The notes below the pieces were generated by a model. The model was not told where the DNA came from. It saw only the letters and a program-made list of their open reading frames with translations, and did not search any database. The position numbers were made by a program, and so were the translations under genes. DNA of 64,000 nt. Source: a virus. Lineage: Duplodnaviria; Caudoviricetes. Shown piece after piece: positions 26,127-53,782 of this stretch. The stretch lies in the IMG/VR virus record IMGVR_UViG_3300022217_000003, positions 111,780 through 175,779 of that record. One strand, 5' to 3'. Position 1 is the first letter of the stretch. Every line of letters begins with the position of its first letter.

Positions 26127-26377
26127 AGCTCTTTGCTGAGCTCTATCAATCAAATTAAACCTACGAGCTTTCACCTGCGAAAACCTAACTTGAGGATAAG
26201 ACCCGATTTCAAAAAGGGGAACGGTAATCCTCTCACCTTCCTGGATCGTGTCCGGAATTCTTCCTCTCTTGCTCACAGTAACGGCTGGAGATTTTATATC
26301 TTTATCATAAACCGGTAAAGCACCCTGTGGTAATGGGTCCGGTACAATAAGTTTTCTTCCAACCGACTGATAATCTA
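26127..26377 (-). CDS. major capsid protein, exon 3 of 4
   Basis: (L)DYQSVGRKLIVPDPLPQGALPVYDKD...VPLFEIGSYP...RRFNLIDRAQQRA. Confidence 0.85.
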
Positions 26378-26649
26378 CAATTTTGTTACTCACCCTATCT
26401 TGAAGTCACAATTTGTTACTTCAAGTCCAAGGTGGGACAGATCATTTCTGCCTGCCTCTACATATTTCTATGCAGTTCGGACTGTATCATCTTTAAACTA
26501 TTTTCAAAGAACAAAGCCCCCTTTGCAGTCTCTGGGGAGAATTCGTGTTCGCTATTTGCGAATTGAGAACACTCCTGCTGATTGTCCGTCCTCATAAAAC
26601 GGGTGTTCCAGCATACACCGGGGGTTTTAATGGCGCAAGATTATGGTTC
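26378..26649 (-). mobile_element. group I intron 2 of the MCP gene (272 nt), ORF-less
   Basis: P1 AUGGCGU/GCGCCAU with U.G; P TATGCTGGAA, Q AATCAGCAGG, R CAGAGACTG, S GATGATACAGTCC; ends GTAACAAAATTG. Confidence 0.88.
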
Positions 26650-29827: not shown

Positions 29828-30685
29828 TTATAAACCTCCTATTTGATTTAATATATCTATAGTTTTTTGTTCTCCATATAAGCTCATTAGTATAGCTGTT
29901 GCTTCTACTAAATCATTTTCATTATTTGCGACTTTTGATATTAATCTTGCTGCCCTATCTGCAGGGACTGTAACCCAAGATAGTTCTACAAAGTTAACCT
30001 CTCTGTTGTCTTCATATACATCTCTATGTTCACCCTCATGATATATTTTTCTAGCCTTATGGTATTTAATATCATCACAATACTGTGATTCATTGGTAGC
30101 CAAATTACCACATATAGAACAGATAGAATATCCCACGCGACTACCCATTGAAACACTGTCAATATATTTCTTATCAATTGCCCTGACCAGATCTGGGTCT
30201 TTATTTGCATCAACCGCCAATAAGTTTTCTATAAACCTACCATGATGATTAGCTATACAATCAAGGTTGATTCCAACTGCATTATTCACATTATCACTTG
30301 CATGGTCTTTAAAATTACCTCTACCTATAAAGGTCTGATAAATATATTTATTTAATGCGGCATCAAACCTTAAAAGCTCTGGGCTATTAGGATTATCCAT
30401 AGAACCCCAGGCAAACATATCTCCGTTATCATTGGGCACGTCTCCATGCACACTAATAACATGATAGTAATGAAATTCAGGATCGTAATCCCCTATCCTG
30501 TGAAACTTATTATCTTGATAAGCTCTCTTCTCTGCCACCTCTACATAATTAGCCATTACTTTATCATACTTATTCAAGAAGTCATTTTTATTCCCGAATG
30601 AATTACTTGCTATTTTAATCTTGGAATTGCCCTCTCCATACGGAGTTATGGGATCATTCCATGATGCCCTTTTTATCATACTCAT
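29828..30685 (-). CDS. prohead (capsid maturation) protease
   Basis: PNDNGD, NFKDH, SVSMG, CSICG, FVELSWV.PAD motifs of HK97-type/DUF2213-like maturation proteases; synteny portal-protease-scaffold-MCP. Confidence 0.75.
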   Translation of the reverse strand: MSMIKRASWNDPITPYGEGNSKIKIASNSFGNKNDFLNKYDKVMANYVEVAEKRAYQDNKFHRIGDYDPEFHYYHVISVHGDVPNDNGDMFAWGSMDNPNSPELLRFDAALNKYIYQTFIGRGNFKDHASDNVNNAVGINLDCIANHHGRFIENLLAVDANKDPDLVRAIDKKYIDSVSMGSRVGYSICSICGNLATNESQYCDDIKYHKARKIYHEGEHRDVYEDNREVNFVELSWVTVPADRAARLISKVANNENDLVEATAILMSLYGEQKTIDILNQIGGL

Positions 30686-37087: not shown

Positions 37088-37288
37088 CTATCTAGTTTGT
37101 ATTTGTCTGGCCATATCATTATAGTCCGACACTTCCTGTTCATCATAAAGATAACCTGTATCATTCTGGCTCATTATAGGTTGCTTATTTGTTTTTTCAG
37201 TCTTTAACTTGCGCGGGTTCACATAATCCCTCTCTTGTCTTATTGGATTTGGAACATCTGCTTGTTTTAATATTATTACTTTATTCAT
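37088..37288 (-). CDS. small protein with MNKVIILKQA leader (putative head-internal protein)
   Basis: shared N-terminal leader. Confidence 0.5.
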   Translation of the reverse strand: MNKVIILKQADVPNPIRQERDYVNPRKLKTEKTNKQPIMSQNDTGYLYDEQEVSDYNDMARQIQTR

Positions 37289-37300
37289 ATCTATGAGTCC

Positions 37301-37744
37301 TTAATAGCCGATAGCCTGTCCTGAGCTTGTGCCGGTGTCATATGATTTATCTGTGCCTTGTCCTGTAAAATCTTGCCTTCCACCCATACCATCCCAATTT
37401 AATTCTTGTAGACCATCGGGTTCATTTCTGAATCTTCGCCGATGCTTCTGCCTAAAGGGTTTGTCTTTAGGTTCTTTATTAAACATATCTATATTCTGAT
37501 CGTTTTCTAATGGATATAAATTGTCTGCTCTTTTTAATATTATTATTTTATTTTTGCACTCAACGCATATCTCGCCATCAGGGGTATCAAAAATGGCTAC
37601 ATTAGAATCCATTTCCTTTATAATGCCTCTGTGCTTTTCTCCCAATAAATTCTCTGTTTCTATATAATCACCTACCCCAATTAACAAATTGCCCTCATCG
37701 TCCCTTACCTTGGTAGCTTCTTTTAGTATTATTACTTTATCCAT
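37301..37744 (-). CDS. protein with MDKVIILKEA leader and internal KIIILKRA copy
   Basis: shared leader present twice. Confidence 0.5.
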   Translation of the reverse strand: MDKVIILKEATKVRDDEGNLLIGVGDYIETENLLGEKHRGIIKEMDSNVAIFDTPDGEICVECKNKIIILKRADNLYPLENDQNIDMFNKEPKDKPFRQKHRRRFRNEPDGLQELNWDGMGGRQDFTGQGTDKSYDTGTSSGQAIGY

Positions 37745-38107
37745 TTATTTATCTTCGCAATCCTCTTCTTTAATATCAAATATTTTATCCGATCCATCCC
37801 CATCCCATCCAAAAGATTTTGTATAATCTTTATCATCGGGATCAACCAATATTTCAAAGCTATGCCCTGCATTTCCTATTCCTTTTATATATTCTAATAA
37901 CTCAATCAAATTTTTATCTGTATCTTTTACAGTAAGGGTATACTTTTTTCTACCTGACTTAGCTTTTCTTATTATTACTTTATCCATACTAATCTTCCCA
38001 TTTCCATTCAAAAGAACCATCACCTTGTTCAACCAAGGTCTTTGTTGGCTCTCTGAGTCCTTGCTCTTTAGCTCTACCAAGTGCCCCATCGCAGTTACAT
38101 TTATCAT
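37745..38107 (-). CDS. protein containing MDKVIIRKA motif (possible start at 37987)
   Basis: motif at internal ATG; GNAGHSF and FGWDGDGSD segments. Confidence 0.5.
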   Translation of the reverse strand: MINVTAMGHLVELKSKDSESQQRPWLNKVMVLLNGNGKISMDKVIIRKAKSGRKKYTLTVKDTDKNLIELLEYIKGIGNAGHSFEILVDPDDKDYTKSFGWDGDGSDKIFDIKEEDCEDK

Positions 38108-39236: not shown

Positions 39237-42200
39237 TTAAATTAACGGCTCCATACTTGAGGGTTTGTATTTTTTATCTTTGTATTTGTTTCTATTCATG
39301 GCTACTTGTCCTGGGCTTACTTTTTCTTTTTTACCATCTACTTCTACTTCGTAGTATGAATGTGTCCCACTTTCACCATTTGCTTTTTTATCAAGGTCTA
39401 TAACTTCTCCGCTTGCAGTTATTTCTTCTGTGGCAATATCCTCAACCTTACCTATTCTATCTCTAATCGCTTCTTGAATTTGCGAAGGTATTTCATTTTC
39501 TTCTATCTTTCTACCAAGATCCTCTATGGCTATTGCGCCTACATCACCGAGAAATTGATTAAATCCCTGTGGAGACATAGCATTTTCACTCATGCCATAA
39601 GCATCCTCACCTATTAACACCGTATATCTATCAAAGGATTCTCCTTCGTTGTCATATACTTTAACCTCAGACACATCTCCTTGATTATCATACCCCATAT
39701 CTTCTTCTAGCTTATGCATAACTAAACTAATATCCCTTGCGTCCATTCCTTGTTCAAGACCTTGTTGTTCTATCTCTTCTTTACCCCATCCATATTCCTT
39801 TGCCTGGTTTACAAGATCATCCATAGCACTGAAATCTTCTGGTGTAACCGCAGCTACTGCCCCTCTGCCCTGATGCTTATAATGAAAATCCATTATGTTT
39901 ATTACTTCATCAGGATCAATATCAACTCCGCCACCCCTTCTATATATAGCTATCTCATCACTATCTGCATATGGTTCAAGTATGTATTCATCTTCATCAA
40001 GATCTAGTGTCTTTAGTATTTCACTATCATCATAAGATATTATTTCTTCTCCATCATCGTAGATGGTCCAAACGCTTCCTCCGTAAGTATCTGAGTAACC
40101 TGAGTATAATTCAGCTTTTTTTTTTAATGATGCGTGTTTCTTATCATACGAATCCGTTCCCTTAAATACAGTTTTGCCTCCACCTCTATCAGTAAAATAA
40201 TCTGACAATTCTTTCTTATCCTCCTTGCTCATAGCCTTCATCTCTTTTTCTGAGAAGGCATGAACACATGTGGCACATTTATAATATGCTCCACCCACTC
40301 CTGATTCAAAATAAGCGCAGTCTCTGCATTTGTTTACGTCATTCGGTCTACCATTCTTGGCTATCTTAGTTGTGCCATTGCCGAAAGAATATTCTTTATC
40401 AAATCTACTTGCGGTAATGGTAACTATGGATTCATCTTCTTTCTTTATCCGGACAACACTATTGTTAGAACCTGTTATGATTCCTTCTGATTTATCTTTC
40501 TTTGATATGACATCTTCGCCAACAATATTATTACTTGCGAATGCCATGCCTTCATCTTCTATTCCTTCTGATAGTGCTACATCTAATTCATTGAGCTCTT
40601 CATCAGAACCGGCGAAGAGGTTGACTATGTTATTAAACTGTTCTATTATCCAATCTAATACACCTGCTTCTTTATGGAATGATGCGAGCGTCTGTCTCTG
40701 TTTTGTTTCAGGATATACAGCAGCCGTTTCAGCCACTGTCTTTGATTCATAAGATAATAGATCCCTGACATGATTGACTTTCTCTTCCATCTTGTCACCA
40801 TAGTCAATTATCATTCTTGACAATACTTCATCTGATTTTATCTTAGCAGGATCTGTCTGATTATATCTATCTAAATGAGCAACGAGTATATCTTTAAACT
40901 TCCTTACCTCGCCCATTGGTATAGTGCTTATTACATCTAGTTTTAATGACTCTTGTAATTTCGCAAGGTCTTCTCTGAGATTTGATTTCTCTGTCTGAAG
41001 GGGTTCTTGCTTTTGCTTCATCTTCAATTGAAGTTGCTGTATCTTTTCCTGTATCTTTGCGGACTCCTTCTTTGCCTGTGCATCTATCTCTTGTATCCTA
41101 GACTCCAATGCTTCTAAGTCCTGTAACTCTTTCTGTATTGTTTCTGATACAAGATTAGGAATTACCTCACCCTTCTGTGGAGCAGGGGCAAATGACGGTC
41201 TTATCTTTTGTTTAATAAGACTTGGCTCTAATCTCTCTGGGGATTCCTGTGGGTTATTATCATCTTCTATAGCTACTTCTGCTTCTTTATTTAAAGATGC
41301 TTCTTTCTGTGGTTGCATCATATTAGTTTCTTCTACAAAATTTGCCCAGGCTTCTAATGGTGTTAATTTTTCTTCTGGATCATATTGTTCTCTAAATTTT
41401 TCAGATACTTCAAATGGTATATCCTTCATTGTCTTCACTATTTCAAAAGACTCTTGGGGCGTTCCTTGTGTAGCTATTTCTCTAAATTCTTGAAATAGAT
41501 CTGCTATCTTATTTAAGGATGCTTCTTTCCCTAATGATTCTAATACAGGCATAAATATTGCTTTGGCTTCTTCTAAAGAAGTAGAGTATATATAGAAGTT
41601 TATATCATTGGGATATGATTCGGATGGGTCTGTGGTAAATAATTTACCTGCGCCAACACTGTGTAATTGTTTTATTATTTCATCAGGGTTATCCCCTTCG
41701 TCCAACTCTATAGTAAAATTAAATTTACCCACAGGGTTCTCATCATATAGTCTTGCGGCTTCTTTTTTCTTGTCATCATCCTTCGGGGCCTTCCCGTATT
41801 CTTTTCCTTCTCTTCCCCTTATCTCATCTTTCTTGGCATCGGATAGATCGCTCCATATTGCGCCTACTGTTTTATCTACTTGATCACTATCATAATCTGG
41901 ATTGTCTTTCTTCACCTTCTCTGTTTTCTCACCCCACCACTTCTTTGGGGGCTTTAAACTGGAGTCGGATTCCTTCTTCGCCCTCTGCGTTATATTCCCA
42001 TCGACATCTTTCTCCTGCTTACGCATATCCTTTTTAAGTTCCTGCTCACTCTTTACCATTTCCTGAACTTCTTCTTTTTGTGGGTCTTTGTCTTTCTTAT
42101 AAACAGTCTGCTTTACTCGGAGGTTTTTCTCCTGCTCATCTTGCTTGGGAACAGAGGTCTTCATACTATCTAACAGATTGGCATCTACGGTTGAATTCAT

Positions 42201-42809
42201 CTGCATTTCGGATGTCTGTATCTGATCTTGGGCTTTAATCCTTTTGCCTATCTTCATATTCTTCTGGTCTTTTATCCAACTATGTATCGCCCTTCTTATT
42301 TTATTGGTCTGATTACCCTTTATCTTTAATTTCTTTTTATCTATATACTCAGATAACTTCTCGAACTCTTTTGAATCCAAAATATAGTTTTCTTCTTTTT
42401 CAACAGAGGCTACTATTGAGGTGAAGTCATTACTGATCTGGGCATTTGTTTTCCTGTCATAATTAGGCTTTGTGTTACCAAAATTAGTAACAAGGTTGCC
42501 CACTGCATAAAATCCTGAGCGTTCAACAACAGGAATAGTATTTTTCTGTATCAACCCACTGTTTCTATAAACATCTTTCGTGGCACTGTCTACTTCTGTC
42601 ATTAATATAGTGCCTACTACTTTGCCTATATCTGATTCTTTACCACTTGATAAGGCTTTTTTGACAAGCTCTTCTTGTTTCTCGCTCAATTTAATACCAG
42701 TCTTATTTAGATATTCAGACAACCGCTTATCTTCTGTTGAAGCCGTCTTGGTCATTCCACCAAGTGTATTGTCTGTAAACTCCTTTAACCAATTTGCCAT
42801 CTTTATCAT
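39237..42809 (-). CDS. large multi-domain acidic protein with K-x-A linkers (putative head-internal polyprotein)
   Basis: linkers GKEASLNKIA, QKEASLNKEA, LASFHKEA, KHASLKKKA separate unrelated domains including a Cys4 motif and YDNEGESFDRYTV. Confidence 0.55.
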   Translation of the reverse strand: MIKMANWLKEFTDNTLGGMTKTASTEDKRLSEYLNKTGIKLSEKQEELVKKALSSGKESDIGKVVGTILMTEVDSATKDVYRNSGLIQKNTIPVVERSGFYAVGNLVTNFGNTKPNYDRKTNAQISNDFTSIVASVEKEENYILDSKEFEKLSEYIDKKKLKIKGNQTNKIRRAIHSWIKDQKNMKIGKRIKAQDQIQTSEMQMNSTVDANLLDSMKTSVPKQDEQEKNLRVKQTVYKKDKDPQKEEVQEMVKSEQELKKDMRKQEKDVDGNITQRAKKESDSSLKPPKKWWGEKTEKVKKDNPDYDSDQVDKTVGAIWSDLSDAKKDEIRGREGKEYGKAPKDDDKKKEAARLYDENPVGKFNFTIELDEGDNPDEIIKQLHSVGAGKLFTTDPSESYPNDINFYIYSTSLEEAKAIFMPVLESLGKEASLNKIADLFQEFREIATQGTPQESFEIVKTMKDIPFEVSEKFREQYDPEEKLTPLEAWANFVEETNMMQPQKEASLNKEAEVAIEDDNNPQESPERLEPSLIKQKIRPSFAPAPQKGEVIPNLVSETIQKELQDLEALESRIQEIDAQAKKESAKIQEKIQQLQLKMKQKQEPLQTEKSNLREDLAKLQESLKLDVISTIPMGEVRKFKDILVAHLDRYNQTDPAKIKSDEVLSRMIIDYGDKMEEKVNHVRDLLSYESKTVAETAAVYPETKQRQTLASFHKEAGVLDWIIEQFNNIVNLFAGSDEELNELDVALSEGIEDEGMAFASNNIVGEDVISKKDKSEGIITGSNNSVVRIKKEDESIVTITASRFDKEYSFGNGTTKIAKNGRPNDVNKCRDCAYFESGVGGAYYKCATCVHAFSEKEMKAMSKEDKKELSDYFTDRGGGKTVFKGTDSYDKKHASLKKKAELYSGYSDTYGGSVWTIYDDGEEIISYDDSEILKTLDLDEDEYILEPYADSDEIAIYRRGGGVDIDPDEVINIMDFHYKHQGRGAVAAVTPEDFSAMDDLVNQAKEYGWGKEEIEQQGLEQGMDARDISLVMHKLEEDMGYDNQGDVSEVKVYDNEGESFDRYTVLIGEDAYGMSENAMSPQGFNQFLGDVGAIAIEDLGRKIEENEIPSQIQEAIRDRIGKVEDIATEEITASGEVIDLDKKANGESGTHSYYEVEVDGKKEKVSPGQVAMNRNKYKDKKYKPSSMEPLI

Positions 42810-42838
42810 TTGTATTTACTCTCCTTATTTATTTCTCT

Positions 42839-43078
42839 CTATGGTAATGGGCCAGATATGGATTTATCACTATCGCCAAAGCTGGTCGATCGATTATATG
42901 ATTCCCCTGTATCGTCTCCACCTATTTGATCTCTATCCCAAAAGGGTGTCTTTGTATTGCCCTTTTCGTTCTCTCTCTTCTGTGGACCTGTAGTCCAATA
43001 GTAATCTCTTTTATAATTATCCCCATGACTCTTGGGGTCTGTGCTTATGTTCTCTGCTAGTATTATTACTTTGTCCAT
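42839..43078 (-). CDS. small protein with MDKVIILA leader
   Basis: shared leader. Confidence 0.5.
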   Translation of the reverse strand: MDKVIILAENISTDPKSHGDNYKRDYYWTTGPQKRENEKGNTKTPFWDRDQIGGDDTGESYNRSTSFGDSDKSISGPLP

Positions 43079-43080
43079 AT

Positions 43081-43323
43081 TTATTCGCCGTATTCCATAC
43101 GTGCATCTCTAGCATCTTGTAATGCATCAAAAGCCTTATCGAGTTCTATTTTTTCTTGGGGAGTTAACTTCTCACCATTTTCTATTTTCGTTCTATAGTG
43201 GAATACTATATTCCAAAAATGATCTTCATTTCTTTTTAGCCATTCTCTAGTAGATTCAGATTCACTTCTCTCTAATGCAGGATTACTACCAAGATATGCT
43301 TTTCTAATAATGACTTTATCCAC
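43081..43323 (-). CDS. small protein with (M)DKVIIRKA leader
   Basis: GTG start; shared leader. Confidence 0.5.
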   Translation of the reverse strand: MDKVIIRKAYLGSNPALERSESESTREWLKRNEDHFWNIVFHYRTKIENGEKLTPQEKIELDKAFDALQDARDARMEYGE

Positions 43324-43657
43324 TTGTTAACTCTTCTATTGGATCATACGCTATTCTATCTTCTATACTTTCAACTACTGTATTATAATCAGCACTATCT
43401 TCTGCAAAATCACCCACGTTAAATACATCTATTTCCTGTCCATCTTCTGTAAATATATTAATCTGATGTCCGCCATACCATGCATATATAAATCCGCCAT
43501 TTGGATCATGCTTGACGTATTTTGCACCATCAAGTTGTTCGCCTAAGGATGCTTTTTTATCTATAGCCTGAACAACACCTGTAGCCTCCTTAAATAACTT
43601 CTCGTTTTCTGCAAACTTATCAAGCCACTCTGAGTGTTTATCTTTCTTGTGTATCAT
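43316..43657 (-). CDS. putative head-internal protein
   Basis: DKKAS linker then domain GAKY...YAWYGGHQINIF..DGQEID, paralogous to a domain in 43672..44478. Confidence 0.5.
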   Translation of the reverse strand: MIHKKDKHSEWLDKFAENEKLFKEATGVVQAIDKKASLGEQLDGAKYVKHDPNGGFIYAWYGGHQINIFTEDGQEIDVFNVGDFAEDSADYNTVVESIEDRIAYDPIEELTSG

Positions 43658-43671
43658 AATTTATTATTCTC

Positions 43672-44478
43672 CTATACCGCTTCGTATTCATCAACTGTAA
43701 CCCAGTTGTTATCTATATATTTTTCTACTGTTACCTGGTTATTATACGGCATACCGTCTTCTACTGTCATTCTTGAGAGCCAAACCCTTGTATCTTCATC
43801 TTCGTATTTAAGATTGTCTGTTTGACCTTGGGATATTGTAGGCATTTCAAGAAGCTCCCTAAGTGACCATTCTTCGTAGCCTTCGTAATCTTCTTCCTCG
43901 TAATCTTCTATAATTATATTATCTTCTTCTAAAGGATAATCAGCCTTCTTCTTCAACTTCAACTTATCGCATATATGAGCTTCTACTTCTTCCAGAGTAG
44001 CTTCGGGTCTTTCCTCACTTCCAATAACATCGCAATCGACTTCTTCGCCATTCTCATCCATGGCATATACATTATGCCCGCCGAAGAATGCGTATGTGAG
44101 ATTATTGTTTTTGTCTTTATAAGAATATCTTGCGCCCTTCAACCATATTGGGTTTGCTTCTTTAACTACTTCTGGCTGTGCATCAAACTCCTGATTATTA
44201 ATTATAACTTTGTCCATTGATTTACTCTCTCCTTTATGCTTTAATCTTCTTTCCATTTCTGGGAGTCCTTTTTTGTCGTCATAATAATCAGGCATATTCT
44301 CGCCCTCTGTATGGTCTCTTGCAATAGACTCCGCCATATCTCCCATTGACATATCAAGCTTATTGTCCTGCTTGATGTCTTTCTTTATTTTATTATAAGT
44401 AGGTCTGTGTTCCATCTCTATTTTCTTACCCACTTCTAATTCATTATTCTCTGCTTTATTTATTATTACCTTATCCAT
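43672..44478 (-). CDS. multi-domain protein with two MDKVII motifs; DUF5661-like N-domain
   Basis: MDKVIINKA, GKKIEMEH...IARDH...PDYY, internal MDKVIINN at 44217. Confidence 0.55.
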   Translation of the reverse strand: MDKVIINKAENNELEVGKKIEMEHRPTYNKIKKDIKQDNKLDMSMGDMAESIARDHTEGENMPDYYDDKKGLPEMERRLKHKGESKSMDKVIINNQEFDAQPEVVKEANPIWLKGARYSYKDKNNNLTYAFFGGHNVYAMDENGEEVDCDVIGSEERPEATLEEVEAHICDKLKLKKKADYPLEEDNIIIEDYEEEDYEGYEEWSLRELLEMPTISQGQTDNLKYEDEDTRVWLSRMTVEDGMPYNNQVTVEKYIDNNWVTVDEYEAV

Positions 44479-44481
44479 GAT

Positions 44482-46503
44482 TTATACTGCCATCTCTGTC
44501 TGACTATAATAGTCAGATAAGAATAAGGCTATATCATCTGGTTCTATGGGCAATCTATTCTCCTGTGCAAAATCAGTTATAACCTCAGTGGCATCTTCAC
44601 GGGAGAAGGCATACTTATTAAAGTGTTCTTCTGAGAAGCCGAGTGATTGTATATAACTATCTACTTCTTCCTGCCATACATTCTTCCATGGATCATCACC
44701 TATTACCTGGCCTTGTTTCATTTCTACCAAGTCCATTAGTATGCTTCTTATTCCGCCTACTGTTTGGGTTGTTGCTTTTTTATTTAAAGAAGCTTCTTTT
44801 CCTATTTTAAAGCCACTTGGAATATATTGGTATAAATCAGATGCCCCTTTATTAACAAGGGAAGAAAGCCAATGTCTCATAAACATATACAGCGTATCTC
44901 TTCCTCTGTCACCAGAAGCATTTAGTTTTTTTCTAAAATCTTCATTAGCTTCATATATACTTCTTGCCCTATCGGCTAATGTATCTATGTACCCATCTCT
45001 CATTTCATATACAGATTCATATAATTCTTCAGGAACAAATGACATAAATTCATCATATACTGTTTCGGCTACAATCTCTGGCATTAAAGCAGTTTCATCT
45101 TCCATGTCTGCTTCTTTATTTAAAGAGGCTTCTTTGTCAGATTCCTTTTCATTGTCATCATCTTCTTTATCCTCGGATGGCTCTTCTTTTTTGTCATCCT
45201 TTTCTTTATCTTTATCATCTTTGTCTTTATCTTTATCTTTTGATTTAGACTTCTTGCCTGAGAAGTTTTCTAATTGCTCTTGTCTCTTCTTCGCTTCTTC
45301 CTCAGTATCATAAGTGCCCATATTCTTTCCGTTTTTAGATTGAACTTGATATCTGCCATCTACCTCTACTATCTTTGCTTTTTTATTTAAACCTGCGACT
45401 GCTTTATGCTTAGTAACATATTCATATACTTCTTGTGGTGTGTTAGCAAACTTTCTCCCTAAGATAGATACCCTACCTTCGGGATCTACTATACGCCATC
45501 CATAAGCCTCGCCACCTTCCGTTATATGATATCCATTAATATCTTCTGCTTCCTTATCCAAAGAAGCTTTCTTCTTTGACCAATTATCATCTTCATCTTT
45601 CTTCCCGAAGTCTTTCTCTGAGCCATATGGTTTTTGTTCATTGCCCCATTGTCCTGCGCTTGTTTCATTTGGTCCCTGTGTGAGATACTTGGTAGGGACA
45701 CACTTGCCGCCTATTTGTTTTACATTCTCCACGGGAGTTTTCCATAACTTACAATACGTCTTTCCGGCTATACCATTTGGAATCCTATGTTCCAATGCAT
45801 CCTGGGCATTCCCTATATACACCTGGTGTGTACATGAGGATCTTAATTCATCTGGTATGGTCTCGTCCTTCTTTGCGTTCTTTACAAAGGCAACTATTAT
45901 CTTATCTGATAAATCATTGAAGGATACTTTATAATCCTTATCCTCATCTAGTCCCTCATATGCCAATTCATCTTTTGCCTCTTCTAATATATTCTCATCT
46001 TCTGTGGATAATACATACGTATCATCATCTAACTCTCTGGCTATCTTTGTATTACCTAATACAGAATTGAACTTATCTAATTTATCTGATTCATCTATTT
46101 CATTTTGTCGTTCATGCACGACATTTTCTTCATCCTTACTATCGCCAACCTGATCTATTTCCATAGCTTTCCGGATAGAGGATACGACATTATCATTGAG
46201 CCAAACTCTATTGTTTAACTTATCTTCCGCCCTCTGTAGATTAACAATATAGATTCCATCCTGTTCTGTATCAGATACTATCTCTTCTTCATTGAGTGCA
46301 TGAACTATCATTTTCGGCACATCTACATTAATATTGCCGATCTTGATATCCTTCTGATACATTATGTGGTTCTTCGCTTCCTTTGTCATATGTTCAAAGG
46401 AATATGCACATAACATTTCAAGCTCATAATCTGATAATTTAGATGCGAATTTCTTTAATTCAGCTTTCATTATTCTTATCCTCCAAGTCCGTGGCCAGAC
46501 CAT
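44482..46503 (-). CDS. multi-domain acidic protein with K-x-A linkers
   Basis: KKKASLDKEA, GLNKKA, DKEASLNKEA, GKEASLNKKA linkers. Confidence 0.55.
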   Translation of the reverse strand: MVWPRTWRIRIMKAELKKFASKLSDYELEMLCAYSFEHMTKEAKNHIMYQKDIKIGNINVDVPKMIVHALNEEEIVSDTEQDGIYIVNLQRAEDKLNNRVWLNDNVVSSIRKAMEIDQVGDSKDEENVVHERQNEIDESDKLDKFNSVLGNTKIARELDDDTYVLSTEDENILEEAKDELAYEGLDEDKDYKVSFNDLSDKIIVAFVKNAKKDETIPDELRSSCTHQVYIGNAQDALEHRIPNGIAGKTYCKLWKTPVENVKQIGGKCVPTKYLTQGPNETSAGQWGNEQKPYGSEKDFGKKDEDDNWSKKKASLDKEAEDINGYHITEGGEAYGWRIVDPEGRVSILGRKFANTPQEVYEYVTKHKAVAGLNKKAKIVEVDGRYQVQSKNGKNMGTYDTEEEAKKRQEQLENFSGKKSKSKDKDKDKDDKDKEKDDKKEEPSEDKEDDDNEKESDKEASLNKEADMEDETALMPEIVAETVYDEFMSFVPEELYESVYEMRDGYIDTLADRARSIYEANEDFRKKLNASGDRGRDTLYMFMRHWLSSLVNKGASDLYQYIPSGFKIGKEASLNKKATTQTVGGIRSILMDLVEMKQGQVIGDDPWKNVWQEEVDSYIQSLGFSEEHFNKYAFSREDATEVITDFAQENRLPIEPDDIALFLSDYYSQTEMAV

Positions 46504-48326
46504 TCACTGGGGTCTGCATTTAATTTACTATCTCCATGGAACTCTCTGGCATTTTGCCCATCACCAACATTGGTATTCTCGTCCATGGTCTTTTTATCAT
46601 ACCTCATTGTTTTCTTTTTATTATATTCTTTTCCGCCCCAAGGTTTTTTGTCTTGGTCTTCTGCCTTAACTATCTTATCTGCATACTTATTAAGTATGGC
46701 ATCTGCCTTCTTATTTAAATCATTCATTATTACTTCCGAGTCTTTATTTAATAGCATATGTGATATGATTCTTTTGAATGCTTTATAATCAGATGGTTCC
46801 ATTACGTTAGATGCCAAGGATTCCAATACAGATTCATTACCTAAATCTTGATTTTTTATTTTCCAATATCCATCCGCCCATTCAAGATCTTCTATATCAC
46901 CTAATTTCTCATATTCGGTTTCTACTTGTTCGCCATATACATCTTCAATTTTATCAACAGTAACCAATCCGTCATACCCTATATATCTGATTTCATCACC
47001 TATTTCTGGTATTAGTTTATTTTCAGCTTTCTTCTTCATTCTTTTATTAGAAGAAGCTTCTTTTTCTTCTAATGTAGAAAATGGTGCTTCGCAATCACAT
47101 TCTTCTCCCGTGTATTGAGTATTCCCTGATTCGTCTTTTCTTATTGTGAATCTCTTTCCGCATTCATCACACTCCGCTAAATATTCCTTACTCGCTGCCT
47201 TCTTATCCATTCTTTTATTACCAGAAGAAGCCAATACAGTAACTAATTGTTCTGCCCCTTCTAAAGGAGCGAGATTATAATCCTGTCCTGTTATGGCATT
47301 AATGAGTTCTTGTTTATATGTTCCCTCATTTGGCCTGCCCTGTATCTGTTCTTGGTATACTCTCTGTAACCATGCCTGTGCGTTCTCTATACCAGAGGCT
47401 AAGGCGTTCTTCAGGTTATTCCATATGGTTCTTACCCAATCTTCCAACTCGGCCATTGCGGCTTCTCTGTTCTTTATCTGTGTAAAAGCCTTCTTTGTCT
47501 TGAACTCCATGTAAGTAGTATTGGTGGCTTTCATAATATCCACAGGGGGAGTTAATCTATTTAACTTACGCAAGTCCTTGTCCCATAATATACCGATTAG
47601 GTCTGGATATACATCAACAACCTTTCCTGCCGATCCTTCTTTTACCGTATATCCATCTTCATACTCTGCGGTCTTTATACTGAATACTCTATCTGATATA
47701 TTGTAACTTGCTTGTGGCTGAGGTACAGGAGGAGCAGGTTGTTTTGCCTGATTAACAGGAGGAATAATACTATTAACTGGTGGTGGTCCCGCAGGTAATT
47801 GTCCTGCGGGTGCTTTAGGCTTCCCCCATGGTTGAGGTTTCGGTGCAGGAGCTACGGGTGTAGGCTTCGTGCCAGGCTGTGGTGCTGCTCCGGGCGCACC
47901 AGGCACAGGTTTTGCCCCAGGTGCCGGTACATTCTGCTTGGTTTCCAGTGATGGTGTAACCATACCGAAGTCACCTAAGTCTACCTTCAATCCTAACTCT
48001 TTAAACTTATTAAGCTTTTCGGCAAAGAACTCTACGTCCTTCTTATCAAACGCAGCCATTTCTTCTGCGTCAAAGTCCTGTGCCTTAAACCTTAATATCT
48101 CTTTATTGCCTTTATTGATAACAACATCACCATCGAACTTTATCTTGATGCCCTTATCTTCTTTGGGAGGCTTAGGTTCTGTATCTTCGCCCTCTTCTTT
48201 ATTAACAGGTTCGGGCTTATCCTCTTCTTCTTTATCGTCTTTCTTTTCTTCTATATCTTCCTTGGGCTTTTTATCTTCTTCGTCTTCTGCCCTTTTTATA
48301 CGTAATGAACTGCCTTTTAAAAACAT
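46476..48326 (-). CDS. multi-domain protein with Pro-rich segment and K-x-A linkers
   Basis: RIKRA, SIKTA, ASSGNKRMDKKA, ASSNKRMKKKA; CDECG...CDC zinc motif. Confidence 0.55.
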   Translation of the reverse strand: MFLKGSSLRIKRAEDEEDKKPKEDIEEKKDDKEEEDKPEPVNKEEGEDTEPKPPKEDKGIKIKFDGDVVINKGNKEILRFKAQDFDAEEMAAFDKKDVEFFAEKLNKFKELGLKVDLGDFGMVTPSLETKQNVPAPGAKPVPGAPGAAPQPGTKPTPVAPAPKPQPWGKPKAPAGQLPAGPPPVNSIIPPVNQAKQPAPPVPQPQASYNISDRVFSIKTAEYEDGYTVKEGSAGKVVDVYPDLIGILWDKDLRKLNRLTPPVDIMKATNTTYMEFKTKKAFTQIKNREAAMAELEDWVRTIWNNLKNALASGIENAQAWLQRVYQEQIQGRPNEGTYKQELINAITGQDYNLAPLEGAEQLVTVLASSGNKRMDKKAASKEYLAECDECGKRFTIRKDESGNTQYTGEECDCEAPFSTLEEKEASSNKRMKKKAENKLIPEIGDEIRYIGYDGLVTVDKIEDVYGEQVETEYEKLGDIEDLEWADGYWKIKNQDLGNESVLESLASNVMEPSDYKAFKRIISHMLLNKDSEVIMNDLNKKADAILNKYADKIVKAEDQDKKPWGGKEYNKKKTMRYDKKTMDENTNVGDGQNAREFHGDSKLNADPSEWSGHGLGG

Positions 48327-48327
48327 A

Positions 48328-49428
48328 TTATTCTCCTATTTCCTCTTCATGTATTAATTCATACTGAGCTTCTTTTTTCATATCCTTATTATCATTTTTA
48401 GCCAATGCCATTTCTTCGCTTGGAGATAATGACTCTACAATTTCCCTTATTAAATCCTGTTTGGAATTTTCAAAATAAAAGTTAATATATTCTGAATATC
48501 TATCATCTAAATCAATCCCTTTTTTTTCTGCATATTCATCAAGTGTCAAATCTAGCTCTCTTATTTCAAAGAATTCATCTTCATCAAGTAATTCATTATA
48601 AGGAGCATCGCTCCACGGAACACTAAGAAGAGGAATAATATCCAATGTAGGATTTAATGAAGTAGAGGAAGTCATAACACTAGTTATTCCCACACTTCCA
48701 TCAGAAAGATCATAATAAATTTCCATATGTAACCCATTCCCATCTTTATACTGTAACAACTCTACACTTGCGGATAAATATAAATTCAATGCTTCATCAA
48801 TAATTCTCAACTCTTCTTCTTCTGATAGCTGTATATTATTTACACCTTCTTTTTTCATATCCTTATCAGAAGATGCCAATGTCTGTTCTTCCCCAGGGGT
48901 TCTTCCCACTGACTCTTCCTTCTTAGTAACACTATCTTCATCTTCTATCTCTGTGGAGGTTATATAGTCTGTTAAACCCTCATGAGTGAACGCATACTTG
49001 CGCCCTATTGAATCCAGGAAGTGTTCGGGTTCTATTAAGTCACCGTTCCTTATCTCTACCGGCACTGTGAATGCTCTCTTGTTTCCATCTATGTCTATAA
49101 CATCAACAGCGAACCTGGCTTCTCCGAAGTCTACCACATTGGCGTTCTTTTTATATGACCTTACATCCATATTCTCATATCTCATATTCAATACAGGTAT
49201 CTTCACCTTAATCAATTGTTTCTCTAAGAATGATGCAGCCTGAAACATTGATTGTGATCCATCCTTCTGTCTCAATGCCTGTATATCCCTTGATGCATCA
49301 CTGCCCATTTCATGTTGGATATCATACCTTTTATCCATTTCAGTTAGTAGTTTATACTGCTCTAACAAGTCCTGATTTGGTTCTGGCGTAAAGCTTATTT
49401 CATCTGACGCTTTCTTGTAATTCATCAT
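48328..49428 (-). CDS. acidic protein with K-x-A linkers
   Basis: YKKAS, LASSDKDMKKEG, LAKNDNKDMKKEA. Confidence 0.5.
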   Translation of the reverse strand: MMNYKKASDEISFTPEPNQDLLEQYKLLTEMDKRYDIQHEMGSDASRDIQALRQKDGSQSMFQAASFLEKQLIKVKIPVLNMRYENMDVRSYKKNANVVDFGEARFAVDVIDIDGNKRAFTVPVEIRNGDLIEPEHFLDSIGRKYAFTHEGLTDYITSTEIEDEDSVTKKEESVGRTPGEEQTLASSDKDMKKEGVNNIQLSEEEELRIIDEALNLYLSASVELLQYKDGNGLHMEIYYDLSDGSVGITSVMTSSTSLNPTLDIIPLLSVPWSDAPYNELLDEDEFFEIRELDLTLDEYAEKKGIDLDDRYSEYINFYFENSKQDLIREIVESLSPSEEMALAKNDNKDMKKEAQYELIHEEEIGE

Positions 49429-49580
49429 TATCTCCTCTTTCTTTATCTGCTTGAATATTCAATTCTTTTCCTGAACAATTTTCACATATTACATAGCCTT
49501 GGGAATGCATAAATAAACCCTTGCGGTCTTTATTACATATGATACATCTAACAAAGCTATCTTCGTGTAAGACAAACATA

Positions 49581-50159
49581 TTATTTATTGAACTTATAGA
49601 TCAGGAAATATTTAGCCGTCTCTATATTTTCATCTTCCTTTTCTAATACATATTTAATCTCTACTGCCTTCTCTAATCTCCAGCCCCTATAACACAATAG
49701 GAATTGATTAAATTGCTTGAGCCACCAAAACTTTGACATAGCAACTATCAAATATCCCTGGGGCTTTATTATTCTTTCAACTTCAAATATACTCCTATGG
49801 TTTTCACCATAGCCAAACCTATTGGCAGGAGTGAATATAAAATCAAATGTATTGTCATTGACTGGTATCTTATTAAGACTACATTGTATATCGGGAACGA
49901 GCTTAGTGCCGTCCTTTTCTTTAGTGGCATCGTCAATGCCCATATATTTAATCTTATTGTTATTGGGCAAGTGTTCTTTTACATATGATTGAGAACAGAA
50001 CAAATCACATACCTTTATATCTGCCGAATCCTCAGAGAAGTAAAACATATTCTTGATGGCTTCAAACAATTCTTCATACAACTTATTGCCTATATCTTCT
50101 TTATCACATTCGCCCATTTCTACAGTTTGTATTTCTATCTCTTCATTAAAGTTTTTCAT
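49581..50159 (-). CDS. class I SAM-dependent methyltransferase-like protein
   Basis: VCDLFC, YMGIDD, IPVNDNTFDFIF, EVERIIKPQGYLIV. Confidence 0.65.
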   Translation of the reverse strand: MKNFNEEIEIQTVEMGECDKEDIGNKLYEELFEAIKNMFYFSEDSADIKVCDLFCSQSYVKEHLPNNNKIKYMGIDDATKEKDGTKLVPDIQCSLNKIPVNDNTFDFIFTPANRFGYGENHRSIFEVERIIKPQGYLIVAMSKFWWLKQFNQFLLCYRGWRLEKAVEIKYVLEKEDENIETAKYFLIYKFNK

Positions 50160-50521
50160 TACATAGTTGACCTTTCTATTTGTACGTTATATGTATTGAT
50201 TGCATCCACTAATGCCATAGCTAATGGATCATTAATCCTATTGGAAAGTATCTCTATTTCATAGGCATATTCTTGTTGCAATATAGTATTAAACTCTTCC
50301 TCTTTATACAGGTTAACTAGGTCTGTATTCCCCTCCGCCCTATCAATTATTTCTTGCAAGAGGTTGGGGTTTTCAGTAAAGTATATATTCATCATCTTGT
50401 CTGCAAGCTTTCCTGATTCTTCTACTGGCAATTGGTTGAATAATTCATACGGAAACTGTATCATATTATACTCCTGGAGGTGTAGCAACTGGTGGAGTTG
50501 TTTCTTCTGGCTGACCCTCAA
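50159..50521 (-). CDS. hypothetical acidic helical protein
   Basis: ORF in operon; start likely at MIQFP. Confidence 0.4.
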   Translation of the reverse strand: MRVSQKKQLHQLLHLQEYNMIQFPYELFNQLPVEESGKLADKMMNIYFTENPNLLQEIIDRAEGNTDLVNLYKEEEFNTILQQEYAYEIEILSNRINDPLAMALVDAINTYNVQIERSTM

Positions 50522-52487
50522 TGGGTTCAGGGGCTTCTGTTATCTTCTTGGTCTCTGGTACTAATTCTTCTTCCTGCCGTTGCTCTTCTTGTTGCACCCT
50601 ATCAAACATTCTACTGGTCAAATCTTCTTTTAGCTGACCATCTCTTTCTAATTCATTGAGCTCTTCTACCAACTGATTGTATTCGGCATCTGTTATTTCA
50701 TTATTAGAAAACCTAGTCTGCAGTCCATATTCTATCTGTGCTTTAAAATCATTTACTATCTTTTCTACATCGCCTTCACTAGATAATATATAATCCGATG
50801 CTTCATTCCATACATCTGATTTCAATTGAGCTACATCACTAACTCTTTGGATCTCATCCCCACCTACACCGGGCACAACTCCTTGCATTGGTTCTTGTGT
50901 AGCTTGCTCTGGGTTATTAATATCTGTGGCAACAGGCGATTGCTCTGTTACCTCTTCAGCCGTTACCCTTTTACTTATCCGTGTTATATCAGGCGAGTCT
51001 ACATTTATAGCCTCTAATACAAAGTTGGGATCTTCCCCATATAATCCAAATATCTCCCTTATCACTTCTGTCAATTCGCCTAACTTTCCTTCTGATACAA
51101 TGTCTTGTACATTACGCTGTATATTACTTACGAATCTATCCACAATATCTTGTCCTGCCTCTATAGCACCGGTTATTATGGGCTTTATTTTTTTTACAAA
51201 TGTCTGGTAAACTTCCATAACCCATGGTCTTATCTGACTAACATCAAGAGCCTGCTTTAAAAAAAAATTCTTTTCGGCAATCAGCAAGTTCTTTAAAGCA
51301 GTAAGGTCCTCAACACTATCCTTATCTCCTTGGGCATGTGCCATCTTTATCTCTTTATTTTTATATTCTATCTCATCTTCTAACTCTTCTATCTCTTCAT
51401 TGAATGATATATCTTTCTTCATGTCTGATTGTATGCTTATATTGTCTGCCTTTTTTACTTGATTTGATTTTGCCCTATACATTTGTTCATAATCGGAACA
51501 AGAATTATCACTGATTACAATAATGTCTTTAGAACAAGTATCAATTTCTTCACTGTTATATAAACAATCAGGTGTATAACATTTTATAACTTCAGTAAAA
51601 CCCTCAGCTTCCTTACTAAACATTCTCACTAACTCCCTATTATGTATCCGGCAAGACCTTACTTTATAAGCCAATGCTTTCTTCTTCACTTGAAACTTAC
51701 CCTGCTCATCCTGCTCTACATCATACTCACTTATGTCACCTGCGTTTTGCATCTTGTATTCTTCCAATGCTTGTTGGGCTTCTTCTGGTGTGTTGTATGG
51801 TAAGCCACTTACTTCGGCCTTCTTCTTTATTTGCTTATCTTCTTCTTTTTCTTCAGCTTTATCTTTATCCGTATGTTTATATTTATCTTTCTTTTCATCT
51901 TTTTTGTCCTCTTCGTCATCGTCTTCGTCTTTTTTTTTAGAAGCCGTCATCATAGCAGTATCGCCCGCGCCTTCCATAGCCACCTCTGCCTGTTGCATCT
52001 GTGTCTGTAGATCTGTCATGCCTATTTCTATATTTTGTATCTGGGCAAGGAGGTCATTCATCTGATCTGATGGCGCACCCTCTCTTTTCATATCGGCGTA
52101 CCTACTCTTCAGAGAAGCGTGAGCCACTTTTAACTCATCTACCCTACCTTCGTAATCCCTATCGTCAACAAAGCTCATTTGGGTATCTTCCAATTCGGCT
52201 ATGACCGTATCTATATCCTCATCGGACAACCCCCTATCATAGGCTTCTGCCTGGATCTCTTTCCAATCAAAGTCATATTTATGCTCATTACTATTGGCAT
52301 CATACCTGAAGAACCTGTCTTCCGCCCACGACATTAATTCTATTTTGGGATCTGCATCATCTTCTACGCTTTTTAGTGCTTTCTCATTATCACTATTTAT
52401 CTTATCAACAATAGCATCTATCCTGTCACTTCTTTTATTAAACATGACCTTATTCTCCTCCTCGCTTAGATGAATATTTAAATTCAT
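50466..52487 (-). CDS. multi-domain acidic protein with K-x-A linkers
   Basis: MTASKK, IKKKA, VKKKA, FSKEA, VKKA, FLKQA; Cys-rich mini-domain. Confidence 0.55.
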   Translation of the reverse strand: MNLNIHLSEEENKVMFNKRSDRIDAIVDKINSDNEKALKSVEDDADPKIELMSWAEDRFFRYDANSNEHKYDFDWKEIQAEAYDRGLSDEDIDTVIAELEDTQMSFVDDRDYEGRVDELKVAHASLKSRYADMKREGAPSDQMNDLLAQIQNIEIGMTDLQTQMQQAEVAMEGAGDTAMMTASKKKDEDDDEEDKKDEKKDKYKHTDKDKAEEKEEDKQIKKKAEVSGLPYNTPEEAQQALEEYKMQNAGDISEYDVEQDEQGKFQVKKKALAYKVRSCRIHNRELVRMFSKEAEGFTEVIKCYTPDCLYNSEEIDTCSKDIIVISDNSCSDYEQMYRAKSNQVKKADNISIQSDMKKDISFNEEIEELEDEIEYKNKEIKMAHAQGDKDSVEDLTALKNLLIAEKNFFLKQALDVSQIRPWVMEVYQTFVKKIKPIITGAIEAGQDIVDRFVSNIQRNVQDIVSEGKLGELTEVIREIFGLYGEDPNFVLEAINVDSPDITRISKRVTAEEVTEQSPVATDINNPEQATQEPMQGVVPGVGGDEIQRVSDVAQLKSDVWNEASDYILSSEGDVEKIVNDFKAQIEYGLQTRFSNNEITDAEYNQLVEELNELERDGQLKEDLTSRMFDRVQQEEQRQEEELVPETKKITEAPEPIEGQPEETTPPVATPPGV

Positions 52488-53250
52488 ATGTATAATCTAA
52501 ATTATAGAGATGTTCAAATTCTTCTACTGTCAAAAACTCTTCTCTTAATAACTGTGTAGACCCACCCTGCTCTTCAAACTCATCGTTATCATCTAATATT
52601 TCTACTGTATATATATCTTGACCGACACCTCTATCAGATGCAAATTGATCTACGGATACTATTTTGCCTTTTGCGGTTCCCCATAAATCAGGGTCACTTC
52701 CCCTTTGATATGTAACTACGACAATATCACCTTCTTTTACATACGTAGGCTGTGGTCTGTAGTCTTCTTCTGCTTTCTTATCAAGGGAGGCTTCTATGAG
52801 ATCGTCTTCCTTTTCTTTATCAAGCATTTCTTTCTTTTTCTTTTTGGCTTCCTTGTCATCCTCGGCATCGAACTCTACTGTTTTATTATCTTTCTTTTCT
52901 GTATAGTATTTAGATTCCTTATTCAGCTTCGCCCTTCTTATGATATCGCCAATACCATTGGTCTCTTTCATAAGGAACTGTGATCCATCCTCTGCCTCTT
53001 CCAAATACCATATGTCGCCATCATTGATGTATTCACCTAATGAATAGTCTGCCTGGTATGCCCTCCGGCCAAGGTATCTAGAGTGCTTGAAGAACCCTAT
53101 CTCCTCAGCTTCCGCCATGGTCATCTTATGCTTCTTCTCCTCGGCCACCTTTGCTTTCTTCTTATCGTTTAACCTATCGGCCAATTCACTAAGGAAGGAT
53201 GGTATCTCGCTCCCAAGCCTTACGACTGATTTATCTGCTTTTGTTTTCAT
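52450..53250 (-). CDS. putative head-internal protein
   Basis: MKTKA, IIRRA, ASLDKKA; GDIWYLEE..DGSQFL motif; SH3/KOW-like C-domain. Confidence 0.5.
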   Translation of the reverse strand: MKTKADKSVVRLGSEIPSFLSELADRLNDKKKAKVAEEKKHKMTMAEAEEIGFFKHSRYLGRRAYQADYSLGEYINDGDIWYLEEAEDGSQFLMKETNGIGDIIRRAKLNKESKYYTEKKDNKTVEFDAEDDKEAKKKKKEMLDKEKEDDLIEASLDKKAEEDYRPQPTYVKEGDIVVVTYQRGSDPDLWGTAKGKIVSVDQFASDRGVGQDIYTVEILDDNDEFEEQGGSTQLLREEFLTVEEFEHLYNLDYTYEFKYSSKRGGE

Positions 53251-53782
53251 ATGCGGGTCTCCTTATTTTTGCGTCTTCTGATGTATCTACTTCGGGAGTA
53301 GACGTTGTCCTGTTATGGTCTGTCCCATACATGCCACCTGGCTTGTCCTGCCCTGGTTTATTCTTATTCATTGGATAGTTGTCGAAGTGGTCTTCTGGGC
53401 TGAAGTGCCCTTCGTCTGTATAATTGGGGTCAGGCTGCACTGCCTTCTTATTGAATGACACCACTGCGTTATTACAATTATGGCAGTATGCGTATACTAG
53501 CATGCCGTCTGTGTATCCTGTTATAGTCCCTGGGCTTACATCATCTTCGTATCCTGGCTTTACATCCTTCTTGCCCGGATAGCTCTTCTTGTCCTTATGC
53601 TCATATAAGAACTCCCAATCCTTAGTATCCTTCTTTGGGTCTAGTGTGGAGTCATAAGGGGTAGGCGTGCCATAGAAGCCTTCCTGGAAGTTCCTGTATT
53701 CCACTGAGGGCTCTGTCGCTACCTTGATGTTAATACTGTGATTACAGTACCTGCAGGCTATCTTTATAATATCTTTACTCAT
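53231..53782 (-). CDS. zinc-binding protein, first gene of the structural block
   Basis: MSKDIIKIA leader-like start, CRYC and CHNC. Confidence 0.5.
   Translation of the reverse strand: MSKDIIKIACRYCNHSINIKVATEPSVEYRNFQEGFYGTPTPYDSTLDPKKDTKDWEFLYEHKDKKSYPGKKDVKPGYEDDVSPGTITGYTDGMLVYAYCHNCNNAVVSFNKKAVQPDPNYTDEGHFSPEDHFDNYPMNKNKPGQDKPGGMYGTDHNRTTSTPEVDTSEDAKIRRPAYENKSR

Follow-up and report, generated by a model that had tools for sequence, protein, structure and literature searches.

The fold of the head proteases gp21 of phage T4, gp175 of phiKZ and gp245 of SPN3US is related to that of the herpesvirus protease, and Glu is the residue after which these enzymes cleave a large number of head proteins (PMC5694885, PMC10052503). 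In T4, the internal proteins (IPs) IPI-III and Alt carry a capsid-targeting sequence and undergo processing by gp21 (Mullaney and Black 1996, as cited in PMC5694885), and inner-body and ejection proteins of phiKZ, 201phi2-1 and SPN3US are cut by gp175 or gp245 (MEROPS S80) at S/A/G-x-E or A-x-E (PMC5694885, PMC10052503). The polyvalent proteins of phages and conjugative elements hold two to fifteen domains on a single polypeptide, and their release by an embedded peptidase has been proposed (Iyer et al. 2017, PMC5512222). Here we examine the last 64 kb (64,000 nucleotides, hereafter the window) of the 175,779-bp linear IMG/VR virus record IMGVR_UViG_3300022217_000003, whose completeness is about 77% (CheckV). 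Our subject is a block of nine large minus-strand open reading frames (ORFs) and a few small ones at 39237-53782 of the window (about 14.5 kb and 5,000 residues), which are late genes encoding multi-module proteins punctuated by a recurrent linker peptide. A preliminary description made from the DNA letters ended this block at 53250, but the motif continues to 53782 through the ORF at 53231..53782.

We propose that a gp21-type prohead protease, following a rule of Ala at P1 and Lys at P3 in place of the Glu rule, probably cuts these polyproteins inside the prohead. As judged from sequence and structural models, the motif is specific to head genes, conserved at the level of peptide, kept in portal, protease and scaffold across the clade and located in inter-domain linkers, and the earlier suggestion that it marks prohead-protease sites has gained accordingly in credibility as a prediction. 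As with the T4 IPs and Alt, short conserved N-terminal leaders that end in the head-protease motif precede unrelated proteins, a protease with a predicted gp21-like fold lies in the head module and the products are expected inside the capsid. The locus differs from T4 in using hydrophobic-x-K-x-Ala rather than L/I-x-Glu, and in having most modules chained into polyproteins of 270-1190 residues rather than encoded by single genes. As in the phiKZ group, a jumbo-phage head seems to hold many large internal proteins, and the portal, scaffold-like proteins and internal proteins would share one protease, which would cut some of them more than once. Unlike in that group, the sites separate independently occurring domains and do not mainly mark N-terminal propeptides for removal. 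The block also resembles polyvalent proteins, being composed of large multi-domain proteins that are encoded beside portal and terminase genes, predicted to be packaged and built of mosaic, fast-shuffling domains for which proteolytic release is proposed, except that release here would come in trans, from the prohead protease acting at a conserved linker. None of the polyvalent hallmark domains (MPTase, ART, MuF, ParB, SNF2, helicase, methylase and others) was found by Pfam and PHROG scans of the block proteins.

Comparison of the linkers by sequence shows that the invariant unit is A-S-L-[N/K/D]-K-x-A, with hydrophobic-x-[K/R]-x-Ala as its looser form. All linkers quoted in the preliminary description occur in the ORFs to which they had been assigned, and the portal and protease occurrences are likewise present. 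That description had given the near-identical unit as K-x-A-S-L-N-K-x-A, of which the A-S-L-N-K-x-A portion is invariant; because the preceding K-x is not conserved, it falls outside the unit. The exact pattern ASL[NDK]K.A is found seven times where 0 are expected (three in ORF 39237-42809, three in 44482-46503 and one in 52450-53250) and is absent from every other frame and gene of the window. The seven heptads differ in their synonymous codons for Ala, Ser, Leu and Lys, which indicates that selection acts on the peptide and that the repetition is not one of DNA. A DNA-level repeat or recombination cassette was also considered and is ruled out by the varied codons together with unrelated flanks and upstream DNA.

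Enrichment was assessed by whole-protein shuffles of each ORF (n=500), with the rest of the genome represented by 259 ORFs (46 thousand amino acids). Within the block, K.A occurs 64 times versus 30.1 expected (z 7.0; reached in 0/500 shuffles) and K.AS 13 times versus 1.6 (z 8.8). The same K.A pattern is not enriched elsewhere in the record (171 versus 178 expected across the 259 ORFs), such that the enrichment over the rest of the genome anticipated in the preliminary description is borne out. Residues around K.A are biased in the block only, with L/M/F at P5 in 45% of cases, K/N/D at P4, K/E at P2 and S/E/D at P1'. A refined motif, [LMFIV].[KR].A, is present 40 times in the block versus 9.2 expected, 18 times versus 7.5 in other head genes and 62 times versus 72.6 in the rest. 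Outside the head region, the sole marginally motif-rich ORF lies at genome 11478-14063 (5 versus 1.6 expected), which is not significant among 259. Glu motifs of the T4 and phiKZ types show no enrichment in the block ([LI].E, 80 versus 70.9 expected; A.E, 28 versus 33.2), and the Glu rule of either phage was rejected for the block on this ground; unlike in the phiKZ group, P1 would be Ala and P3 would be Lys.

We consider it very improbable that the pattern is a by-product of a Lys/Ala/Glu-rich composition or of recent DNA duplication. The block is indeed rich in K and E, and a few of its modules are paralogous, which qualifies the earlier statement that the domains are unrelated. However, local shuffles in 15- and 30-residue windows leave the block with 40 motifs versus 9.6 expected, while the reversed motif occurs 12 times versus 9.7, and local richness in Lys and Ala is therefore not the cause. 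Duplication is further contradicted by the synonymous variation of codons, by the unrelated flanks and by retention of the motif in relatives at 30-60% identity.

The source is, as judged from its genes, an uncultured large (jumbo) phage of the Bacillus phage G-like kind, since its portal is 39% identical to phage G gp14, its capsid pieces match gp27 and its head gene order is identical to that of phage G. Nearly all genes of the window lie on the minus strand. Along this strand, the head module runs from the large acidic ORFs (53782 to 39237) through an endolysin and small ORFs to the portal (33390-36263), and then through further small ORFs to the protease (29828-30685), a 718-residue scaffold-like protein, a decoration-like protein and a split major capsid gene. 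The polyprotein block is thus a few kilobases upstream of the portal gene, with about 3 kb of endolysin and small ORFs between them. The window and phage G have the order portal-protease-scaffold-decoration-capsid in common with those related loci that span these genes. The major capsid gene is in pieces (24584-26393, minus strand), and an ORF for a LAGLIDADG endonuclease (25202-26149) is situated between two of them.

As an independent validation, 12 related IMG/VR loci, found via an alignment of the protease family, were scored for the motif derived from the window (a single-sequence scan of IMG/VR gave no matches). From the locus start through the scaffold gene, these loci contain 212 sites versus 104 expected, a roughly twofold excess that was seen in 0/300 shuffles. 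Their downstream genes hold 43 sites versus 37 expected, and the reverse motif is unenriched. Phage G exhibits the same partition, in that [KR].A[SA] occurs 22 times versus 4.6 expected in gp4-14 plus gp19-21, and twice versus 3.0 expected in the 28 other proteins of its first 32 kb. Furthermore, distant homologs of the 1190-residue ORF product (29-40% identical in patches) carry AASLNKQA, AASLKKSA, KKASLNKKA, KHASLKKKA, EASLNKQA and similar peptides.

The portal and scaffold, like the protease itself, belong to proven classes of head-protease substrates and bear the motif at conserved positions. The portal (33390..36263, minus strand), whose 39% identity to phage G gp14 extends over the body of the protein, carries the sites LKRTA↓S and IIKHA↓S (the arrow marks the candidate cleavage position) just before its YFHPLYEP body, and portal N-termini in the window, in 9/12 related loci and in phage G present [LM]-x-[KR]-x-A↓[SA] 10-20 residues before the YxHPLY body. 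The scaffold-like protein (718 residues; 27620..29776, minus strand) was said earlier to have the pattern along its length; it contains DKKA↓T and ASLNLDTKKA↓D, and relatives have K-x-A↓S immediately before a conserved SYW domain in their scaffolds, with K-Q-A-S-L-K-K-E-A in one of them. The portal additionally contains an intein-like insertion of about 393 residues (residues ~77-469), which starts CIIPY..., ends ...VAVAN before a Cys and matches inteins from the ribonucleotide reductases of Tenacibaculum phages. Relatives also have portals without the intein, which align to residues 43-77 and 471-948 of the window portal.

Short leaders at N-termini complete this distribution. Eight M[DN]KVII leaders are present, in which the peptide is conserved, the codons are varied and the upstream DNA is unrelated. 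The preliminary description had a K-x-A pattern ending this leader, and [KR]-x-A does follow in six copies but not in those at 43078 and 44478. Leaders of 7-13 residues on large proteins also end in K-x-A, and the family of the 1190-residue protein has a leader of the form x-W-L-x-D/E-F...K-x-A that is recognizable in phage G gp11 as well. Overall, [KR].A appears within the first 25 residues of 14/31 head-region ORFs versus 29/259 elsewhere (p = 1.4e-5). One MDKVII leader (MDKVIITKA↓RVKKCGTCAY...) is encoded far from the head module, at genome 86101 on the minus strand, 25.7 kb before the window start.

Since the motif occurs in both leaders and linkers, and the proteins that bear it are expected inside the head, it might also be an uncut docking or targeting peptide for the scaffold, portal or capsid interior, with proteins that stay full length. 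Polyvalent proteins of the N4 virion RNA polymerase type are packaged unprocessed (PMC5512222). We regard this as improbable, given that it leaves unexplained the copies after the protease core and before the portal and scaffold bodies, which are classic positions for propeptide removal, and that a docking peptide has no need to sit in disordered linkers between domains.

The candidate enzyme is a prohead protease of 285 residues (phrog_18299; 29828..30685, minus strand) with the terminal sites MIKRA↓S, KIKIA↓S and LISKVA↓N. It matches PHROG 18299, 'head maturation protease' (E 3.4e-20), as well as prohead proteases annotated in Rhodococcus phage E3 and in Xanthomonas jumbo phages; at 28% identity, it is distantly related to the head maturation proteases that are annotated in 227-kb Xanthomonas phages. 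When 21 metagenomic homologs (41-75% identity) were aligned together with phage G gp19, every one showed a K-x-A no later than residue seven, another K-x-A↓S some 20 residues further on and, directly after the catalytic core, a near-invariant L-L-E-K-V-A. Residues H128, S179, S187, E225, D226 and D243 are invariant in 21-22 homologs, and the H128-S179 spacing resembles that of gp21. The close homologs P0007 and P0017 are filed under the names of archaeal (Thorarchaeota) and Omnitrophica metagenome-assembled genomes (MAGs) and are probably phage contigs that were binned into MAGs. Among the related loci, L010 (9998-12121), L012 (9767-13151), L013, L014 and L015 have the protease interrupted right after its VSMG serine motif by an insertion of about 400 residues that is similar to the portal intein.

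Structural comparison favours a gp21-like fold for the modelled protease. When the model was compared with 48,161 chains by VIA-align, the top match was T4 gp21 (5jbl_A; Z 7.5, root-mean-square deviation 3.8 Å over 128/165 residues), 2.3 above the next, and the proteases of varicella-zoster virus (Z 4.6) and human cytomegalovirus (HCMV; Z 3.8) are listed as well. Foldseek also gave gp21 as the best meaningful match, albeit a weak one (E 0.3, probability 0.5), and a profile of the protease matched no PDB sequence.

Herpesvirus assemblin (MEROPS S21) cuts between Ala and Ser at its R and M sites. The proposed rule would likewise have Ala at P1 and often Ser at P1', and autoprocessing directly after the catalytic domain would be a further likeness. 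A substrate of the HCMV protease reads ...Asn-Ala-Ser-Ser... (PMC13486704), and the herpesvirus fold is shared with gp21 (PMC5694885). The two systems differ in that the hydrophobic position is P5 in the phage motif, with Lys at P3, but P3/P4 in the herpesvirus one, that sequence similarity is undetectable and that substrates here are polyproteins of cargo-like modules and not only scaffold.

Alternatively, the motif might be a cleavage site for a different protease. That protease would belong to the host, or else to the phage and be encoded in the ~23% of the genome that the record lacks, for instance as a zinc peptidase of the kind of phage G gp2. This alternative draws on the incomplete state of the record, on the M16-type peptidase that phage G encodes beside its terminase and on the preference of known gp21-type proteases for Glu at P1. 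It appears to us quite improbable, since the motif is kept at both termini of the prohead protease across the family, which is typical of autoprocessing, and the 176-kb record yielded no M16 or ClpP protease.

The modular nature of the substrates was examined mostly with the 1190-residue ORF product (39237..42809, minus strand), which was searched by HMMER against 1.84 billion representative proteins. Separate segments draw separate sets of matches, many of which are stand-alone proteins of 70-130 residues. For example, residues ~277-342 (about 41784-41981) yield 47 matches, many of them stand-alone metagenomic proteins of 70-200 residues. The Pfam HMG_box model scores 21.6 bits on this segment, below the cut-off, and 27.7 bits, above it, in the 70-residue homolog P0060; HMG boxes are unusual outside eukaryotes. 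Residues ~1048-1119 (phrog_4496) yield about 97 matches, mostly stand-alone proteins of 77-130 residues, and an ESM Atlas search with this module returned no match. Other matching segments are residues ~522-756 and a Cys-rich Zn-ribbon at ~811-899. Homolog coverage is near zero at or beside the sites 351, 430/436, 504/510, 893/899 and 1143, and at least six segments with separate homolog sets can be distinguished. An alignment of the whole ORF by MAFFT with 84 partial homologs was dropped because domain-B matches were misplaced.

An AlphaFold2 model of residues 780-1190, built with an alignment of 75 sequences, contains confident domains separated by linkers of low predicted local distance difference test (pLDDT) score. 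The linker at residues 875-898 closes with K-H-A-S-L-K-K-K-A, and the strand that follows starts at residue 900, right after the last Ala. A second linker (residues 1139-1146, with L-D-K-K-A↓N) connects the phrog_4496 domain (pLDDT 96-98) to a C-terminal mini-domain. Foldseek found no meaningful match for this multi-domain model. The separate homolog sets, the existence of stand-alone module genes and the low-confidence linkers agree with the earlier view that the long ORFs encode polyproteins of separate modules.

A link between one such module and the prohead is provided by the 673-residue product of ORF 44482-46503, for which a full-length homolog was not found among 5.8 billion proteins. 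A 45-residue bead that starts exactly at LNKKA↓K is 67% identical to a bead in P0035, a metagenomic protein of 601 residues whose N-terminal part is a prohead protease (hhalign probability 99.4%); the shared bead is in a C-terminal extension of about 340 residues. In its apparent domain order, P0035 is cargo anchored to the protease in another phage, and this fusion would place the bead inside the prohead of that phage.

Several observations weigh against cleavage by this enzyme at these sites. Some domain boundaries have no site, for example on the N-terminal side of the HMG-like module, and some motif matches are within predicted folds (KCA in the Zn ribbon; FHKEA at residues 711-715). The proposal that linkers fall at domain boundaries consequently stands in part: in the model of residues 780-1190, both strong sites are in low-pLDDT linkers between domains, whereas the site-less boundaries and in-fold matches depart from it. 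The refined motif was defined on the same proteins in which it was first scored, which is offset only partly by the tests in relatives and in phage G. Also, the model of the protease has a middling pLDDT of 66.7, with a gp21 match below the level that is safe for fold identity, and Pfam families match neither this protease, nor phage G gp19, nor other homologs. Matches to PHROG and to annotated phages without a Pfam family indicate a separate, uncurated family of head proteases. Finally, to our knowledge, the characterised gp21-type phage proteases all cut after Glu and not after Ala.

The architecture of the individual ORFs, all on the minus strand, is as follows. The 1190-residue polyprotein (39237..42809) begins with the leader MIKMANWLKEF...KTA↓S, includes the HMG-box-like module and orphan modules, and further contains the Zn-ribbon module (~811-890), the phrog_4496 module and the C-terminal mini-domain. 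Its sites comprise three ASL[NK]KxA linkers at residues 430-436, 504-510 and 893-899, namely A-S-L-N-K-I-A (41502..41522), A-S-L-N-K-E-A (41280..41300) and A-S-L-K-K-K-A (40113..40133), in addition to LDKKA↓N at 1139-1143. Three small ORFs of 79, 80 and 113 residues follow (42839..43657), two of which begin with an MDKVII leader; in the 113-residue product, IDKKA↓S precedes a module that is paralogous to one in ORF 43672-44478. The latter encodes a protein of 268 residues (43672..44478) with two MDKVII leaders, one N-terminal and one internal, the sites VVKEA↓N and LKKKA↓D, and a phrog_37997 module at its C-terminus.

The 673-residue polyprotein at 44482..46503 carries the linkers KKKASLDKEA, DKEASLNKEA and GKEASLNKKA as well as LNKKA↓K. 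It is followed by a 616-residue protein (46476..48326) with a leader ending in ...SLRIKRA↓E, a Pro-rich tract and the sites RMDKKA↓A, RMKKKA↓E and LNKKA↓D, and by a 366-residue protein (48328..49428) with the leader MMNYKKA↓S and a DMKKEA↓Q site at its C-terminus. Two motif-free ORFs, which encode a weakly methyltransferase-like protein of 192 residues and a protein of 120 residues, interrupt the array at 49581-50521. Beyond them are a second protein of 673 residues (50466..52487; IKKKA↓E, VKKKA↓L, QVKKA↓D and ELKVA↓HASLK), a 266-residue protein (52450..53250) with the linker E-A-S-L-D-K-K-A (52771-52791), and a Cys-rich protein of 183 residues (53231..53782) with the leader MSKDIIKIA↓C and an FNKKA↓V site. 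Outside the block, three small ORFs at 37088..38107 have the leader M[DN]KVII-x-K-x-A.

In the pathway that we propose, the block proteins would be co-assembled into the prohead, with their leaders acting like the capsid-targeting sequences of T4. The prohead protease would then cut at hydrophobic-x-[K/R]-x-Ala, most likely after Ala, and would free about 35-40 domain-sized pieces that either stay in the head with the DNA or exit as scaffold debris. When the loose rule is applied to the block, its 40 sites predict about 37 fragments of at least 40 residues, 20/37 of which have isoelectric points below 5 and only 2 of which are basic. The release of dozens of small proteins, as first envisaged, is compatible with this number, which is uncertain given that boundaries without a site exist. 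The IPs of T4 are basic, and the pieces predicted here differ from them in being mostly acidic.

This acidity is pertinent to an alternative in which the motif is cut as we propose, but the long acidic proteins serve as a dispensable core or scaffold of the prohead interior, comparable to T4 gp22, gp67 and gp68, that is cleared to make way for DNA and is not host cargo. We judge this alternative to be unlikely, yet far from negligible. The bona fide scaffold bears the same motif, and scaffold proteins of T4 undergo cleavage at numerous positions (PMC5694885). No enzyme and no known anti-defence domain emerged from Pfam and PHROG scans of the block proteins, which yielded only the weak HMG-box and two families of unknown function. 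Given this result and the acidity of most predicted fragments, the role in host takeover or anti-defence that had been suggested for the payload is not supported, and it stays a conjecture. Conversely, the HMG-box-like, phrog_4496 and Zn-ribbon modules are compact and folded and have many stand-alone phage homologs, unlike coiled-coil scaffolds. Moreover, a separate 718-residue scaffold is already present, and the modules turn over fast and shuffle between relatives, as conflict-related cargo does.

A broader reading, which is conceivable but somewhat doubtful as a whole, is that the gp21-fold head protease of the phage G-like clade shifted from Glu at P1 to a herpesvirus-like Ala at P1, with the rule hydrophobic-x-Lys-x-Ala↓Ser/Asp/Glu. 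This clade may thereby pair a portable 'pack-me' leader with a portable 'cut-here' linker. In this way, about 5,000 residues of freely shuffled modules would enter the capsid in polyprotein form, give rise to 35-40 separate internal proteins and reach the host together with the DNA. Such an arrangement would amount to a two-tag, programmable system for capsid cargo.

If the rule holds, it would give head proteases of the phage G lineage their first cleavage code and provide an example of a gp21-fold enzyme that uses Ala instead of Glu as the P1 residue, narrowing the gap to herpesvirus assemblin. The mature virion proteomes of many uncultured large phages would then be predictable from sequence alone. 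It would also mean that phages can load the contents of their capsids as polyproteins that are cut in trans, a mode of cargo delivery by prohead-protease processing for which a full-text literature search gave no earlier description, and the pair of leader and linker would offer a simple handle for packing foreign proteins into the capsids of cultured relatives such as phage G.

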